58,116 nucleotides of DNA from Candidatus Micrarchaeia archaeon (GCA_049970015.1 JBMFNT010000002.1:1-58116); one strand, 5' to 3'; positions 1-52,964 are shown, counted from the first letter of the stretch. Notes: generated from the sequence alone by a model not told the origin. Numbers and translations: made by a program.

Positions 1-235
1 ACTGAGGGGGGATACTTCCCCCCGCGGTTGTCTTCCCAAGGAAACCGGTAGGGGGTGGAACCCCCTGCGGTTGGCTTCCCCATTTATTGAGAGGGGGAGT
101 CAGGAATCCCAAGGAAACTAGAGGGGGACCCTTCCCCCTCTGGTTGGCTTCCCGAAGAAAGGTACGGGGGTAGCTGGAATCCCAAGGAAACCGGTAGGGG
201 GTGGAACCCCCTGCGGTTGGCTTCTCCCTTCTTCT
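1..235 (-). repeat. Modular array of GC-rich G5-loop-C5 hairpin units directly downstream (minus strand) of the tRNA-Ala 5' half; runs off the window edge
   Basis: Six units of gggggN5-8ccccc, each followed by gcggttggcttccc and/or aaggaaaccggta. A 43-nt exact direct repeat, cccaaggaaaccggtagggggtggaaccccctgcggttggctt, occurs at 35-77 and 181-223 (146-nt period). G+C is visibly above the flanking DNA. Confidence 0.8.
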
Positions 236-241
236 CCTCTT

Positions 242-277
242 TGCGAAGGCGGCGTCATACCATTAGACCACGAGCCC
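242..277 (-). tRNA. tRNA-Ala(CGC) 5' half (positions 1-37 only); 3' half not in window
   Basis: The reverse complement reads GGGCUCG-UG-GUCU-AAUGGUA-UGAC-G-CCGCC-UUCGCA(A). U8, A14, G18G19, A21 and U33 are present, the D stem is 3 bp plus a U-U, and the anticodon is CGC. The sequence after position 37/38 is not the GGCGG needed to close the anticodon stem. Confidence 0.75.
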
Positions 278-301
278 AGCACCATTTTTCAACAATGGAA
301 C

Positions 302-309
302 TATATATG
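302..309 (-). promoter_or_regulatory. TATA box for the tRNA-Ala 5' half
   Basis: GCATATATAG on the minus strand, centred about 28 nt upstream of tRNA position 1 (277). Confidence 0.5.
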
Positions 310-330
310 CTTTTTTCTGTTTGCCAAACA

Positions 331-340
331 TTTTATATAG
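331..340 (+). promoter_or_regulatory. TATA box for purF
   Basis: ttttatatag ends 22 nt upstream of the ATG at 362. Confidence 0.45.
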
Positions 341-361: not shown

Positions 362-1735
362 ATGCTCAGCGAAAAGAAAGAGGAGTGTGGCATAGTTGGC
401 ATCTATTCTAAGAATCGCAAGAATATTTCTTATCATATTTACAGATCACTGCTTGCTTTACAGCATCGTGGCCAGGATGCAGCGGGCATTGCTCTAACTA
501 ATGGAAGAGTGGCGTTTGTTCATAAGGGCATAGGTACTGTGAACGAGGTGTTCAAGCACAATGATCTTCTTGTGGAGGGGTATATTGGTATTGGGCATAC
601 CCGCTATTCAACGACTGGTGGGTATTCACAGCTTGATGCGCAACCTTCACAAGTGCGTGACATTGCAGTAGCACATAACGGCCACATAGCAAATCAGGAT
701 ATTGTGAGGCGGATGCTTGAGCGTTTTGGGTATATTTTTACGAGCACAGTTGATTCTGAGACCATAGCATACCTTCTTGACAGCGTTCTGAGGGAAGGTG
801 CAAGCATAAAATATGCAATCATGAACCTTATGGATACTCTCGATGGGGCCTATTCAGATGTTGCAATAATTGGCAGTGCACTGGTTGTGTTCAGGGATCC
901 GCATGCCATACGCCCGCTTGTATGGGGCGAGAATGACGATTACATATGTTTTGCTTCTGAGAGTGTAGCGCTTGACATAAACGGCATTGAGTATAAGGGC
1001 ACTGTTAAAGGTGGAGAGCTTGTTATAGTTAATGAGGGTGGTATGCATAGGGAGATGATAAAGGAGGCAGAAACCCGCCATTGTATGTTTGAGTATGTGT
1101 ACTTTTCACGGCCTGATTCCTGTATAAATGATAGATATGTTTATGAGGTTAGGGAAAAATTAGGCGAGCAGCTTGCAAGAGAGTACCCTACTAATGCAGA
1201 TGTAGTTGTTGCAGTGCCAGACACTTCCAGGACAGCCGCATCAGCATTCTCCAGTTCTCTTGGTATACCTCTTGTGGAAGGTTTGATAAAGAATAGGTAT
1301 ATTGGCAGAACATTCATAATGCAAACACATGATGACAGGTGTAGTGCAGTATCCCTAAAGCTTAATGTTATAAGAAAACTGCTTGAGAATAGGAGAGTTG
1401 TGCTTATTGATGATTCGATTGTGCGCGGTACAACTCTTAAAGAAATAATCTCTCTTATAAGAAAGGCATTACCCAAAGAGGTTCACCTTAGGATAACATG
1501 CCCACCTATACGCGCCCCTTGTTTCTATGGCATAAACATTCCCACATACAAGGAGCTGATTGCGCATAACAGATCAATTGATGAGTTACGCAAATATTTT
1601 GGTGCCGATAGCATTGGCTACATATCAATGGATGGCCTAAAAGAAGTGCTTGGCAGTGATATATGCACGGGATGTCTGGATTGCAACTATCCTACACGGT
1701 ACGTGATGGAGCTTGCAAAGGTAGATCGTTGTTAA
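362..1735 (+). CDS. purF: Amidophosphoribosyltransferase (glutamine PRPP amidotransferase)
   Basis: Short propeptide then CGIVGIYS (Ntn nucleophile Cys), GHTRYSTTG, and the PRPP loop VLIDDSIVRGTT. The ATG at 362 is preferred over the TTG at 350. Confidence 0.93.
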   Translation: MLSEKKEECGIVGIYSKNRKNISYHIYRSLLALQHRGQDAAGIALTNGRVAFVHKGIGTVNEVFKHNDLLVEGYIGIGHTRYSTTGGYSQLDAQPSQVRDIAVAHNGHIANQDIVRRMLERFGYIFTSTVDSETIAYLLDSVLREGASIKYAIMNLMDTLDGAYSDVAIIGSALVVFRDPHAIRPLVWGENDDYICFASESVALDINGIEYKGTVKGGELVIVNEGGMHREMIKEAETRHCMFEYVYFSRPDSCINDRYVYEVREKLGEQLAREYPTNADVVVAVPDTSRTAASAFSSSLGIPLVEGLIKNRYIGRTFIMQTHDDRCSAVSLKLNVIRKLLENRRVVLIDDSIVRGTTLKEIISLIRKALPKEVHLRITCPPIRAPCFYGINIPTYKELIAHNRSIDELRKYFGADSIGYISMDGLKEVLGSDICTGCLDCNYPTRYVMELAKVDRC

Positions 1736-5896: not shown

Positions 5897-6520
5897 TCAT
5901 CTCACAACTCTTACATCAACCGCATAATAGCTGTTTTCGTAGACCACCACTGGGTTAAGATCAATCTCTCTTATGCCTTTGTTTTTGTGCATTATAGAGC
6001 ATATTCTTTTCATAATCTCTGCAACCATATTCCTGTTAATCTTTGGCCCTCCTCTAAACTGGTCGAACACTACATCCGCCTTTGTTTCTCTTATCATATC
6101 AAGTGCATCTTCAGTTGATATAGGGCACAATCTCACCGAAACATCTTTGTAGAGCTCAACATTGACTCCTCCAAGGCCAAACAGCACAACCTCACCAAAC
6201 TGTTTGTCTCTTTTTGCACCTATTATTATTTCAATACCCTTTGGCACGTGCTCTTGCACTAGGAATCCATCAACCATGTATTTTCTTGCAGTGAGGCGGT
6301 TATACATGCGCCTGATTTCAACTGCAACATCCTCTCTTTCAATGTTTGTTACCACTGCCCCAACCTCTGTCTTATGAATAATGTTTTCACCAATGGCCTT
6401 TATGACATACCTTTCCGCATGAAACAAATCCTTTGGCAGTGAGGTGCCTTCTATTATAAGATACTTCGGAAGGTTTATCCCAGCCTTGCTGAAAAGTGCC
6501 AAATCCTCCTTCAACTGCAT
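5897..6520 (-). CDS. acdB: ADP-forming acetyl-CoA synthetase, beta subunit (ATP-grasp)
   Basis: ATP-grasp-like sequence lying directly upstream of acdA with a 4-nt gap. Confidence 0.8.
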   Translation of the reverse strand: MQLKEDLALFSKAGINLPKYLIIEGTSLPKDLFHAERYVIKAIGENIIHKTEVGAVVTNIEREDVAVEIRRMYNRLTARKYMVDGFLVQEHVPKGIEIIIGAKRDKQFGEVVLFGLGGVNVELYKDVSVRLCPISTEDALDMIRETKADVVFDQFRGGPKINRNMVAEIMKRICSIMHKNKGIREIDLNPVVVYENSYYAVDVRVVR

Positions 6521-29807: not shown

Positions 29808-30057
29808 GAGCGGCAAGCAGTAGTCTGCCTTCTGTTTTCAGCAGCATTTGTCTTAGCGCCATAATGGCTTGCACGTTCATTGCCTATAAGGATGGCCGTT
29901 TCATCCAGCGCATGCAGATGTCAGTTTTCTTCATTCCTTTTAGCAAGGCCGGTATCGTTTCTGTTCCGTCCTCTCCTATTACAGGAATATAGGCTCAGCG
30001 TGGGCAGAACTTCCTCAGCGCACCTTTTCTTTCTTGGGAAGAAAGAAAAGCTGCACC
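29808..30057 (-). ncRNA. rnpB: RNase P RNA, catalytic core (the 5' end may lie at ~30367; see findings)
   Basis: On the minus strand, in the canonical order: GAGGAAGUUCUGCCC (rc of 30002-30016, CR-I), ACAGAAACGAUACCGGCC (29947-29964), GGAUGAAACGGCC (29894-29906), and ACAGAAGGCAGACUAC (29820-29835). AGUUCUGCC pairs with GGCAGACU leaving one bulged U, which is the geometry of helix P4. Confidence 0.7.
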
Positions 30058-30357
30058 AAAAGAAAGAACCTCTTCTTTTTGAGAAGAGTTGCACCGAAAA
30101 GAACCTCTTCTTTTTTAAGAAGAGCTGCACCAAAAGAAAGAACCTCTTCTTTTTGAGAAGAGTTGCACCGAAAAGAACCTCTTCTTTTTGAGAAGAGCTG
30201 CATCAAAAGAACCTCTTCTCTTAGTGCAAACTTCTTTTTTTAGAAGAGTTGCACCAAAAGAACCTCTTCTTTTTGAGAAGAGCTGTATCAAAAGAACCTC
30301 TTCTCTTAGTGCAAACTTCTTTCTTCTCTCAAGGAGAGGTGCACCGTCAGCTGCACG
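30018..30357 (-). repeat. Tandem array of ~9 hairpin modules (about 34 nt each, two of ~50 nt)
   Basis: The plus-strand unit is gaaccTCTTCTttttgAGAAGAg(t/c)tgcacc followed by an (g)aaaa spacer. Unit starts are about 30066, 30101, 30140, 30175, 30209, 30260 and 30294, plus the perfect 11-bp hairpin at 30025-30049. Higher-order repeats are 30051-30123 versus 30124-30196 and ~30197-30281 versus 30282-30345. Confidence 0.9.
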
Positions 30358-46470: not shown

Positions 46471-47115
46471 ATGTCCCTTATAGCGGGCATTGATGAGGCT
46501 GGGCGCGGGTCAGTCCTCGGCCCGCTTTCCATTGCACTTGTTTGTGGTAATGAAGATGATTTTTTATCTATTGAGCTTACGGATTCTAAGCTCCTCACAC
46601 GCAAGGAGCGCGAATCACTTTACCCTGAAATAAGGAAGAAGTTTTACACATCTTTTATTCTTATAACTGCGAATGAGCTTAATGAGCTTATGAGAAGGTT
46701 TTCGCTCAATGAAATAGAGGCGATGAAGGCAGCATACTTGATTGAAGAGCTTCCGTTAAACCCATCACAGGTTTATGTAGACTCTCCAGACCCAATCGCA
46801 GAAAACTTTGGGCACAGGATTTTGAGGCATATGCAAAAAAATGTTTGTATAAATGCAGAGCATAAGGCAGACTTCAATTATCCTGTTGTGAGTGCAGCAT
46901 CTATAGTTGCAAAGGTTGTTAGGGATTGGGAGATCGACAGGATACGGGATGAACTAGGGTATGATTTTCTTTCTGGTTATCCATCTGATGAATCCACAGT
47001 TCTTGCAGTGAAAGAAATGTTAAGGACGGGCAAAGGAATAGAGTATGTAAGGATGCATTGGAGCACGGTTGAGAACATACTGTCTGAACAGAAGAAGCTG
47101 CATGACTATTTCTAG
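46471..47115 (+). CDS. rnhB: Ribonuclease HII
   Basis: GIDEAGRGSVLGPL, DSK, and SAASIVAK. Confidence 0.92.
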   Translation: MSLIAGIDEAGRGSVLGPLSIALVCGNEDDFLSIELTDSKLLTRKERESLYPEIRKKFYTSFILITANELNELMRRFSLNEIEAMKAAYLIEELPLNPSQVYVDSPDPIAENFGHRILRHMQKNVCINAEHKADFNYPVVSAASIVAKVVRDWEIDRIRDELGYDFLSGYPSDESTVLAVKEMLRTGKGIEYVRMHWSTVENILSEQKKLHDYF

Positions 47116-47139
47116 TTTTTGGTTGATGTTCATTTCCTT

Positions 47140-47410
47140 TCAATTATCCTGTTGTGAGTGCAGCATCTATAGTTGCAAAGGTTGTTAGGGATTGGGAGAT
47201 CGACAGGATACGGGATGAACTAGGGTATGATTTTCTTTCTGGTTATCCATCTGATGAATCCACAGTTCTTGCAGTGAAAGAAATGTTAAGGACGGGCAAA
47301 GGAATAGAGTATGTAAGGATGCATTGGAGCACGGTTGAGAACATACTGTCTGAACAGAAGAAGCTGCATGACTATTTCTAGTTTTCGGTTGATGTTCATT
47401 TCCTTTCAAT
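47140..47410 (+). pseudogene. Tandem duplicate of the rnhB 3' third, the intergenic spacer and the last 15 nt of the convergent DHH gene
   Basis: 47140-47410 repeats 46874-47144 at an offset of 266 nt with one mismatch (t/c near 47118/47384). The junction lies at a shared tcctttcaat. Confidence 0.92.
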
Positions 47411-50869: not shown

Positions 50870-51657
50870 TAGGCCTAGCCAACCCTGGGCGTGTAAAGAG
50901 AGAAGTTTACGATTTTTATTGTAATTATCCATATCCAAGCATACCTTCAATCTTTTCGAAAACACACAGACAGTTGATGAGGAGGATATTTTTGCTTGCT
51001 GGCTATAGAAGTGTAAGGGGGTTGAGGGTTCTTGATGCAGGGTGCGGTACAGGTGAAAAATCTGTATACCTTGCACTTAATGGAGCGGAAGTTACTGCGG
51101 TTGACTTCTCTCCCTCTCAGCTTTGTATAGCCAAAAGCCTCGCTGACAAGTATAATGTAGAAATCGATTTTGTGCAAGCTGACATATCTAATGTTGATTT
51201 GAAAAAGAAGTTTGACTTTGTGCTTTGTTTAGGTGTGCTCCATCATATGCCTGATTTTCATGAAGGGTTCTGTAATGTATCACGCCACACAGAAGAAGGA
51301 GGAAGGATTGTTTTAGGGTTGTATAATAAGTATGGAAGGCTAAGGTATAGAATAGAGAGAAAATTGCTAAGAATACTTAATGGAAATGACCCTAATAAGA
51401 TAATGAATTTTATTATGAATTCACCATTTGCATTTCCATTACGCACAGCATCCAGGCAAACATTATACGACAGATACGCTGTGCCTTATGAAACATACCA
51501 TACGCTTGAAGAGGTAAGGCAGCTGTTTTCAAAAAACAAGTTTAGTGTTTTAGGCATCCATCCAAGGTATGTTTATAGCGACCTTGTCTCACAGCTTGTT
51601 TGGCTGTTAAGCGGCAAATCTTTCTTCTTTGTATTTGGTGAAAAGAAAGAATTATGA
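50866..51657 (+). CDS. Class I SAM-dependent methyltransferase
   Basis: VLDAGCGTGEKS, AVDFS, and LGVLHH. Its start overlaps the Lon-like stop by 4 nt. Confidence 0.75.
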   Translation: MIGLANPGRVKREVYDFYCNYPYPSIPSIFSKTHRQLMRRIFLLAGYRSVRGLRVLDAGCGTGEKSVYLALNGAEVTAVDFSPSQLCIAKSLADKYNVEIDFVQADISNVDLKKKFDFVLCLGVLHHMPDFHEGFCNVSRHTEEGGRIVLGLYNKYGRLRYRIERKLLRILNGNDPNKIMNFIMNSPFAFPLRTASRQTLYDRYAVPYETYHTLEEVRQLFSKNKFSVLGIHPRYVYSDLVSQLVWLLSGKSFFFVFGEKKEL

Positions 51658-52833
51658 AAGGATTTTCTCAATTATTGATTTTATCTTGTATGGGTCATAA
51701 GTAAGCTTGATAAACCTTGTCTGCCCGCGTGTGCCTTTCCCAGAAGAGGTCAGGGTGATCAGCCCGAGCATATCCAAATCGTGAAGATATTCTGAGAACC
51801 ATCTTGAGCTTCTTGGAGAAATTCCAATAGATTTGCATGCTGCTACATAACTGTCATACACTTCACCTGACATGAACACATCTTGTCCATCATCACCAAG
51901 TTTCTTGTACTGACTGCCTTTTATGTAGAGCATTGATATGCCATACAATGCAATCTGTTCGTGTTGGGGTAGTGTGGATATTGTCTCAATCGCAAGGTCC
52001 TCATCAACACTTCTTCGCGCAAGCTCAACATGCTCTTCCGTAATCAACCTATGCCCTCTCTCATTTGCAATCATTCCAGCTTTGAGCACGAGCTTGAGCG
52101 CATACCTTGCATCTCCAGTCTCTCGTGCGGCAAGTGCAGATGCCATTCTTATGGCCGGCTCTGTCAGCACACCATCCATGAATGCTTTCTCCCCCCTTTG
52201 CTTTATTATCTCGTATAGCTGGGATGCATTATAAGGCCTAAAAACCAGTTCAGTCTCATAAAGCCCACTCTTGCTCCGTGGATCAAGCCGTTCTTTGAAG
52301 TGTAGCCTGTTTGATATGCCGATCATTGAAAGGCTTCCCGCCTCAAGCTCATCATTTGTACGAGTTATTGTGTATACCAGGTCATCAACATCGTTTACCA
52401 TATCTATTTCATCCATAATAACAATCAGGTGCATGTTGTTTTCTTCAATCCATTCCAGTATTGTTTCATACAACTTTGATAAGGGGTATCCCATCTTTGC
52501 ATCCCCCTTACATATATCGTTTGCAATCTTAAACATGACCTTGTACCGTGAGTCATATATCCTGCAGTTCATATACCGCATAACTGAGTTCTTCTTCATT
52601 TCGTTGAACTTTTCCATCACATGCTTTGAACAGCAGGTCTTGCCAGTTCCAGTTTTCCCATACAGGAACATATTCTTTGGCTTTGTGTTTTTAAGTGCGG
52701 GTGCAACAGTTTTCATTATAGTTTCAATCTCCTGCTCACGGTGTGGCAATATGTCAGGGACAAAATGCGGTGATAAAACATTCATATCATTGAAGATCCC
52801 ATTCTTTTGGACAATTTCTTCAAAGGTCAGCAT
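51652..52833 (-). CDS. cdc6: Orc1/Cdc6 replication initiator
   Basis: LPHREQE, LYGKTGTGKT, IMDEID, and a C-terminal winged helix. Confidence 0.9.
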   Translation of the reverse strand: MLTFEEIVQKNGIFNDMNVLSPHFVPDILPHREQEIETIMKTVAPALKNTKPKNMFLYGKTGTGKTCCSKHVMEKFNEMKKNSVMRYMNCRIYDSRYKVMFKIANDICKGDAKMGYPLSKLYETILEWIEENNMHLIVIMDEIDMVNDVDDLVYTITRTNDELEAGSLSMIGISNRLHFKERLDPRSKSGLYETELVFRPYNASQLYEIIKQRGEKAFMDGVLTEPAIRMASALAARETGDARYALKLVLKAGMIANERGHRLITEEHVELARRSVDEDLAIETISTLPQHEQIALYGISMLYIKGSQYKKLGDDGQDVFMSGEVYDSYVAACKSIGISPRSSRWFSEYLHDLDMLGLITLTSSGKGTRGQTRFIKLTYDPYKIKSIIEKILS

Positions 52834-52964
52834 TTCATCCCTCCAAAAATAAGCATCACTTTTAGTACATAAACTATTAAATAACTAATCCATGCTTTGC
52901 ACTTGGCAGCACTCAAGAATACTATATTTATAACTTTTATTGTAGCAATATAAACGGTGGTACT

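Follow-up and report, generated by a model that had tools for sequence, protein, structure and literature searches.

The window, a 58,116-nt stretch of DNA from a Candidatus Micrarchaeia archaeon, carries the gene set of an archaeal chromosome, with aIF5B, the small and large RFC subunits, Lhr, ribonucleotide reductase, Pelota and ABCE1, and further with Trm5, MetRS, RNase HII, Orc1/Cdc6 and an Mre11-like protein. Near its left end lies purF on the plus strand (331-1735, with a TATA box at about 331-340 and the coding sequence at 362-1735), whose product has the Pfam domains GATase and Pribosyltran and is listed at NCBI as amidophosphoribosyltransferase of Candidatus Micrarchaeia archaeon. Divergent from purF, on the minus strand, we find the first exon of a tRNA-Ala(CGC) gene at 242-277, followed at 1-241 by the first 241 nt of an intron at position 37/38. 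The intron is ended here by the contig edge and continues on two other contigs, L025 and L026.

Exon 1, nucleotides 1-37 of the tRNA, reads GGGCTCGTGGTCTAATGGTATGACGCCGCCTTCGCA. It contains the acceptor strand GGGCUCG, U8, a short D-arm, the anticodon stem strand CCGCC and the loop sequence UUCGCA, the anticodon CGC being that of alanine. Positions 8-38 are identical to those of an intact intronless tRNA-Ala(CGC) on the metagenome contig L002, and 35 of its 36 bases agree, with one mismatch, with exon 1 of the orthologue on the Logan contig L024. When the 36-mer was searched in degenerate form among 241 million metagenome records, a single match was returned, the unrelated intact tRNA of L002, which argues that exon 1 is not a chance tRNA match; in genome_contigs and in viral_contigs the 36-mer had no match. 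Upstream of the exon, a TATA box (ATATATAG, 308-301, minus strand) is centred about 27 nt before tRNA nucleotide 1, with an A-rich BRE-like run ahead of it at 317-311. Judged by consensus, the segment 301-317 would be the archaeal promoter of the tRNA-Ala gene. A sequence-only reading of this DNA had recognised, at minus 277-242, the 5′ half of a tRNA-Ala(CGC) preceded by a TATA box of its own, and the sequence as well as the comparisons with L002 and L024 bear this out.

The same reading held that the anticodon stem is never closed and that the interruption falls at the canonical 37/38 site. Indeed, CCGCC is absent from the plus strand in 1-241 and occurs there for the first time at 1075, and a 3′ half of the form GGCGG..CGAGYCC is absent from the whole 58-kb window. 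ARAGORN, with or without its intron mode, and Rfam detected no tRNA in the window. The 37/38 position likewise stands, with the proviso that a reading as 38/39 is possible too, base 241 being an A just as position 38 is.

The structured repeat said to fill some 240 nt up to the window edge is also real. The segment 1-241 has a G+C content of about 60% (read by eye) compared with a window mean of 40.4%, and TRF finds a period of 73 with 2.6 copies over 34-224. The motif GGGGG-N4-8-CCCCC gives five pattern matches here, corresponding to four distinct hairpins (one of them in two registers), against an expectation of 0.04, and no such hairpin is present in the remainder of the 58-kb window. On the minus strand, the purine tract A-AGAGGAGAAGAAGGGAGAAG (221-241) occupies the 5′ end of the intron. 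Repeat unit d (152-224) is a full unit, whose hairpin core spans 184-223 and whose second, small hairpin (GGGG-N9-TCCC) spans 166-183; it scores 70 bits with the covariance model R1, the match being on the plus strand and thus antisense to the tRNA, and its hairpin is identical to those in the tRNA-Phe introns of L014 and L016. Unit c (79-151; hairpin core 111-150; 77 bits with R1) is a full unit of the 'TAGA' subfamily and nearly identical to free-standing copies in L006 and L011. The short unit b (34-78) consists of the core hairpin only (38-77), its 45-mer being that of unit d with the same fold, and the variant unit a (1-33), with the hairpin GGGGGGATACTTCCCCCC at 6-23, is cut by the window edge. 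The R1 search found no further copy of the unit elsewhere in the window.

That the edge is an assembly break within a repeat and not a biological end follows from two more MAG assemblies containing the same locus, GCA_049972225.1 (L001) and GCA_049699455.1 (L023). The three assemblies are 100% identical across the locus and stop at different points, corresponding to window positions 1, 52 and 99, all of which lie inside the repeat. Short-read assemblers break within repeats, and this is why the window appears to hold just a 5′ half.

Other repeated sequences are present in the window. A perfect 217-bp tandem duplication of the purF 3′ end (1538-1964) creates a 67-aa ORF (1749-1952); it is also found in L001 but not in L023, where the next gene directly succeeds purF, and is either an assembly artefact or strain variation. 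A near-perfect tandem duplication at 46873-47410 (266 bp x 2, 99%), covering the 3′ end of the RNase HII gene (46471-47115), is of the same kind, a duplicated gene 3′ end. Between the genes of an M17 aminopeptidase and an MFS transporter, tandem units of 35-40 nt occupy 30020-30330 (TRF counts 35-nt units, 4.6 of them over 30044-30211, and further ones extend to 30322). Each of these consists of a hairpin (GAGAAGAG..CTCTTCT) and a T-run after it, so that the array looks like stacked terminators; it belongs to a repeat family other than that of the tRNA-Ala intron.

The missing part of the gene was found through a relative. The closest purF relative (77% identity) is on L024, where a tRNA-Ala gene is again divergent from purF. 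This tRNA-Ala(CGC) is complete, with a 29-nt AT-rich intron at 37/38 and the second exon AGGCGGAGGCTCCGGGTTCGAATCCCGGCGAGTCCA; its junctions, examined by hand, form a canonical bulge-helix-bulge with H = UUCG:UGAA. The gene order on L024 is purF, tRNA-Ala, tRNA-Phe, a small Zn-finger ORF and a glutamine-synthetase-like (GS-like) gene, and an orthologue of the latter (81% identity) is present in all three MAGs. We read exon 2 on the contigs of two of them (L025 and L026); in the window MAG itself, a 13,342-bp contig would be expected to carry it. Both contigs begin in repeat-rich sequence which is followed by exon 2, identical to that of L024 (at 141-176 on L025), and then by tRNA-Phe, the Zn-finger ORF and the GS-like gene, in the order and on the strands seen in L024. 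Given this synteny, the left end of the window and the left end of L025 would face each other across the intron, on one strand. A 3′ half of the kind predicted by the sequence-only reading (AGGCGG + T-arm + CGAGYCC) is thus located at the start of L025 and L026, and the alternative considered there, a decayed remnant of an att site, finds no support since a matching exon 2 lies beyond the repeats. Exon 1 of the window spliced to exon 2 of L025 (tRNA nucleotides 38-73) is recognised by ARAGORN as a tRNA-Ala(cgc) of 74 nt with a 7-bp acceptor stem, and the product has the alanine identity pair G3:U70.

Some additional features of these contigs are worth recording. A comparison of L026 1-116 with L025 1-140 shows that in L026, the contig of the third MAG, 69 nt are duplicated in tandem; the duplication covers the 3′ splice region with the first three bases of exon 2 and creates a decoy 3′ splice site. 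Upstream of TTAGAGGGGG the two contigs differ. The neighbouring tRNA-Phe(GAA) has two introns on L024 (about 1290-1410, plus strand), one after the anticodon loop and one in the T-loop, and only the T-loop intron on L025 (about 232-340, minus strand), indicating that intron content turns over between close relatives. An MCM gene is found near exon 2 on L025 (3432-5453).

The intron parts in hand are the 241 nt of the window and 140 nt on L025. L025 opens with 23 nt (CCCCCTCTCAATAAATGGGGAAG) that are identical to window positions 96 to 74 on the minus strand; beyond them the sequences diverge. If the two 23-nt stretches belong to different copies the intron is at least 381 nt long, and if they are variants of one copy it measures about 284 nt. 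Most of it is a tandem array whose unit is GC-rich, 45-73 nt long and made of two hairpins. Close to the 3′ splice site, the hairpin GGGGGATACTTCCCCC (L025 104-119) is the reverse complement, in the tRNA sense, of the unit a hairpin at window 7-22; units of both orientations are therefore present within the intron, where they could form long-range pairings.

The two ends of the intron are complementary. The sequence-only reading had proposed that the purine tract next to the break should have a partner, and this partner, CCCUUCUUCUCUUCU, is present before exon 2, where it can pair over 15 bp with AGAGGAGAAGAAGGG, the first 15 nt of the tract (intron nucleotides 1-15), taken from base 240, one base past the 5′ splice site; the tract would thus provide one strand of a helix clamping the intron ends. 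On L025 the 3′ end of the intron reads ...CCCUUCUUCUCUUCU-AU-UGAA-AA|A38-GGCGG, so that CCCUUCUUCUCUUCU is 2 nt upstream of UGAA. The latter pairs with U32-G35 as in L024, the 3′ splice-site context UGAA-NA|A being common to both, and inspection by hand shows the H helix UUCG:UGAA and a 3-nt 3′ bulge, AA|A, as in L024. The minimum free energy folds of both reconstructed pre-tRNAs contain the anticodon stem and the adjoining long clamp helix. In the most stable 15-bp register the 5′ splice site is located in a 2x2 loop, and in the strict register it falls within a bulge, beyond which comes a helix with mismatches. The pyrimidine tract CCCUUCUUCUCUUCU can also be taken up by a competing local hairpin. 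The splice motif is thus modelled as a relaxed bulge-helix-bulge.

These data make it very probable, as far as sequence comparison goes, that both exons belong to one continuous gene for tRNA-Ala(CGC), in which a giant cis intron at 37/38 measures about 285 to at least 381 nt, the adjacency of the exons resting on the synteny with L024 and on the presence of related repeats at both contig ends. Transcription would start at the BRE/TATA promoter and read through the intron. The 15-bp purine/pyrimidine helix would then join the intron ends and stack on the 4-bp U32-G35:UGAA helix and the anticodon stem, and the stacked helices may form a relaxed bulge-helix-bulge substrate. By likeness to the epsilon2 enzyme of ARMAN-2, the one organism for which this broad-specificity type is known, a splicing endonuclease of the lineage could cut such a substrate, and an RNA ligase would presumably join the exons. 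Genes for an endonuclease of this kind and for a ligase are absent from the window.

It could be argued that the expansion of the repeats has made the intron unspliceable, leaving a recent tRNA-Ala(CGC) pseudogene with the GCG codon read by tRNA-Ala(UGC). A CGC isoacceptor is dispensable in principle by wobble decoding, which counts for this possibility, as do the 5′ junction, which is not a strict bulge, and the decoy splice site produced by the duplication in L026. However, both exons are flawless and yield a perfect cloverleaf, promoter, H helix and 3′ bulge have been conserved without change relative to L024, and the sequence is identical in three MAGs. We therefore regard loss of function as improbable, in preference for an intact gene with a giant intron.

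The unit that builds the intron is not confined to this locus. A search pattern built from the window unit (TCCCNNGGAAAC-N3-6-GGGGG-N4-7-CCCCC) was run over 185,579 species genomes and matched 20 loci, nine in Micrarchaeota and 11 in bacteria; the bacterial number accords with a rough estimate of about 17 chance matches for the information content of the pattern. Covariance model R1 gives 61-78 bits on every Micrarchaeota copy and at most 17 bits on the 11 bacterial loci. The copies in this range include those in introns of tRNA-Glu (L013, L018), tRNA-Phe (L014, L016), tRNA-Tyr (L017) and the tRNA-Ala of the window. No Rfam family matches the unit, and the unit patterns had no match in viral_contigs.

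In five Micrarchaeota loci besides the window, the unit is flanked on both sides by intact exons of a tRNA gene. The tRNA-Glu(CUC) of L013 has a 43-nt intron which is essentially one unit (found by ARAGORN; Rfam tRNA score 53 bits), and its orthologue in L018 has two tandem units plus a separate T-loop intron. In L014 a 74-nt intron is inserted on the 5′ side of the anticodon loop of tRNA-Phe(GAA) (found by ARAGORN; Rfam tRNA score 36 bits). The tRNA-Tyr(GUA) of L017 combines an intron of about 190 nt, containing two units that both have the opposite orientation, with a T-loop intron of about 130 nt. When the L018 and L017 genes were spliced by hand, ARAGORN recognised the products. The tRNA-Phe(GAA) of L016 (about 5930-6330, minus strand) carries a 78-nt unit-bearing intron and a separate 271-nt T-loop intron; in its hand-spliced product ARAGORN sees a Phe-like tRNA, with an 8-nt anticodon loop as spliced. 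The 271-nt intron consists of a different, AT-rich repeat (TTTTGGATGAA..). An assignment of the L014 and L016 genes to tRNA-Arg(CCG) is contradicted by ARAGORN and by the pairing, both of which indicate tRNA-Phe(GAA) interrupted in the 5′ part of its anticodon loop. The unit-bearing introns are inserted at 37/38 in the Ala, Glu and Tyr genes and at 31-33 in the Phe genes. Copies also stand free in intergenic DNA of other Micrarchaeota (L006 1735-1811; L011 765-840; L012 4206-4284 and 1491-1520), two of them followed by a short T-run; beside the copies in L006, L011 and L012 we found neither tRNA exons nor known RNAs.

Thirteen units (from the window, L006, L011-L014 and L016-L018) were aligned. 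They share a fold made of a 3-bp closing stem, a 2x2 internal loop and a 12-13-bp stem capped by G5/C5, to which full units add a second small hairpin. Covariation links the two free positions of TCCC-NN-GGAAAC to the pair of bases that follows GGTTGGC (AA:TT, AG:CT, TG:CA, CA:TG), and it is seen in the lower stem as well. On this sequence evidence the unit is a covariation-supported family of structured elements found across Micrarchaeota. In all 13 units one strand folds better than the other, by 0.2-6.7 kcal/mol, and in five of the six host genes this strand is antisense to the tRNA, the difference arising because G:U pairs replace the C.A mismatches of the sense strand; L017 is the only host gene in which the better-folding strand is in the tRNA sense. 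The better-folding strand has a purine-rich GA/GG internal loop, compared with CC/UC in the tRNA-sense strand. Readings of the unit as a C/D box RNA, an H/ACA RNA or a K-turn were considered by eye and are unsupported.

A quite different view of the array would be that the repeats are sites at which proteins bind the DNA, whether origin recognition boxes for Orc1/Cdc6 or the origin belonging to an inserted element, and the tRNA half a remnant of integration. Six direct copies of TCC-N3-GGAAAC-N4-5-GGGGG do resemble the euryarchaeal ORB consensus GTTCCAGTGGAAAC-AAA----GGGGG (PMC1868953), and in the window the motif is seen at 34-55, 107-127 and 180-201, with related copies. The origin explanation is contradicted, since the unit sits inside tRNA genes, in several of them between two intact exons, the stems covary in the RNA-like manner described above, and the motif is absent beside the window's own orc1/cdc6 gene (51652-52833, minus strand), 51 kb away; no ORB-like repeats occur in the short AT-rich region upstream of that gene (52834-52964). 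As for integration, no Pfam integrase match was obtained among the approximately 40 window genes scanned or looked up, exon 2 is found after the repeats, and the half in the window is a 5′ part with its native promoter, whereas att duplicates are usually 3′ parts. The likeness of the unit to ORBs is probably a coincidence, and we give this explanation next to no weight compared with that of a transcribed intron.

The sequence-only reading had left the choice between a giant intron and a half-gene joined in trans. In the latter case, adjacent or nearby halves would be transcribed separately and joined through the 15-bp helix, as in Nanoarchaeum equitans and Caldivirga maquilingensis, whose split tRNAs are similarly broken at 37/38, have a promoter for the 5′ half and form a long complementary helix at the junction. 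The tRNA-Ala locus shows a 5′ half with its own promoter and a long complementary helix flanking the splice sites, the exons are on two contigs with the repeat gap unbridged by sequence, and a weak TATA-like element, CTATATAC, is present about 80 nt upstream of exon 2 (L025 55-62), all of which would suit split halves. However, judged by the synteny, the exons are colinear neighbours on one strand, at the position of a normal cis-spliced gene and not with the 3′ half at a separate locus. Furthermore, exon 1 is followed by hundreds of nucleotides lacking a terminator, whereas split tRNAs have a short complementary leader; no oligo-T run was seen on the minus strand in the 241 nt after exon 1 or in the other intron parts in hand. 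Finally, homologous units are bona fide cis introns in five other Micrarchaeota tRNA genes (L013, L014, L016, L017, L018), which supports a cis intron in tRNA-Ala too. Thus, trans-splicing is disfavoured and appears unlikely, if somewhat less so than inactivation of the gene, and the giant cis intron is favoured because the synteny with L024 sets both exons on the same strand, in order and at one locus.

With a canonical archaeal bulge-helix-bulge intron, the tRNA-Ala intron shares the 37/38 position, the 4-bp UUCG:UGAA helix, the 3-nt 3′ bulge AA|A, an intron helix by the splice sites and, presumably, splicing by protein enzymes. It differs in its length of about 285 to at least 381 nt, in a body made of tandem structured repeats and in its relaxed 5′ junction. 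A structured RNA within a tRNA intron is itself not without precedent, since the haloarchaeal tRNA-Trp intron hosts a box C/D RNA. There, too, a conserved structured unit resides inside a tRNA intron and family copies exist outside tRNA genes, but the Micrarchaeota unit has by eye no C/D or H/ACA boxes and no Rfam match, and of its two strands the more stable one in most cases runs antisense to the tRNA.

Archaeal tRNA introns have been described as shorter than 100 nt (PMC4033280). In Thermoproteales, different tRNA species carry very similar introns (Fujishima et al. 2010, cited from the summaries in PMC4033280 and PMC4090602). To the extent that these summaries describe them, the transposed introns of Thermoproteales are comparable to the homologous Micrarchaeota units in different tRNAs (Ala, Glu, Tyr, Phe) and at different positions; the unit differs in belonging to Micrarchaeota (DPANN), in being amplified in tandem, in occurring in both orientations and in being found alone in intergenic DNA (L006, L011, L012). 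Within the same phylum, Ca. Micrarchaeum acidiphilum (ARMAN-2) has heavily interrupted tRNAs and an epsilon2 endonuclease that accepts relaxed motifs for cleavage, the substrate introns tested being 13 and 25 nt long (PMC3239211). Many introns at canonical and non-canonical sites and a tolerance for relaxed motifs are features in common with these disrupted tRNAs (PMC3239211, PMC12397907); the portion of the ARMAN-2 paper text that was searched makes no mention of a shared repeat element or of introns of several hundred nucleotides (PMC3239211). In the searchable literature, the coverage of which is incomplete, we found no prior description of the repeat element or of Micrarchaeota tRNA introns of such length. 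As far as this literature shows, what is new is how long the intron is, that it is built of tandemly repeated copies of a phylum-wide covarying element, and that this element occurs in both orientations and in intergenic DNA.

One tentative proposal, which we consider somewhat less likely to be right than wrong, is that the 45-73-nt unit is a self-propagating 'intron MITE'. It would move, in either orientation, among tRNA genes and sites in intergenic DNA and amplify in tandem, being tolerated through bulge-helix-bulge removal and yielding the longest protein-spliced tRNA introns known. In addition, the unit may itself be a functional small RNA, or encode one, on the strand that in most cases lies antisense to the tRNA.

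The tRNA-Ala gene is missed entirely by standard tRNA finders, and assemblers break within it. The tRNA sets of Micrarchaeia MAGs will consequently look incomplete, and 'half tRNAs' at contig ends can be mistaken for split genes or remnants. For the biology of these archaea, the finding would mean that endonuclease-spliced tRNA introns can reach several hundred nucleotides via tandem amplification of a conserved covarying hairpin element which is common to different tRNA genes across a phylum. It widens the picture of intron transposition from Thermoproteales to DPANN archaea and provides a concrete sequence family for asking how archaeal tRNA introns spread.
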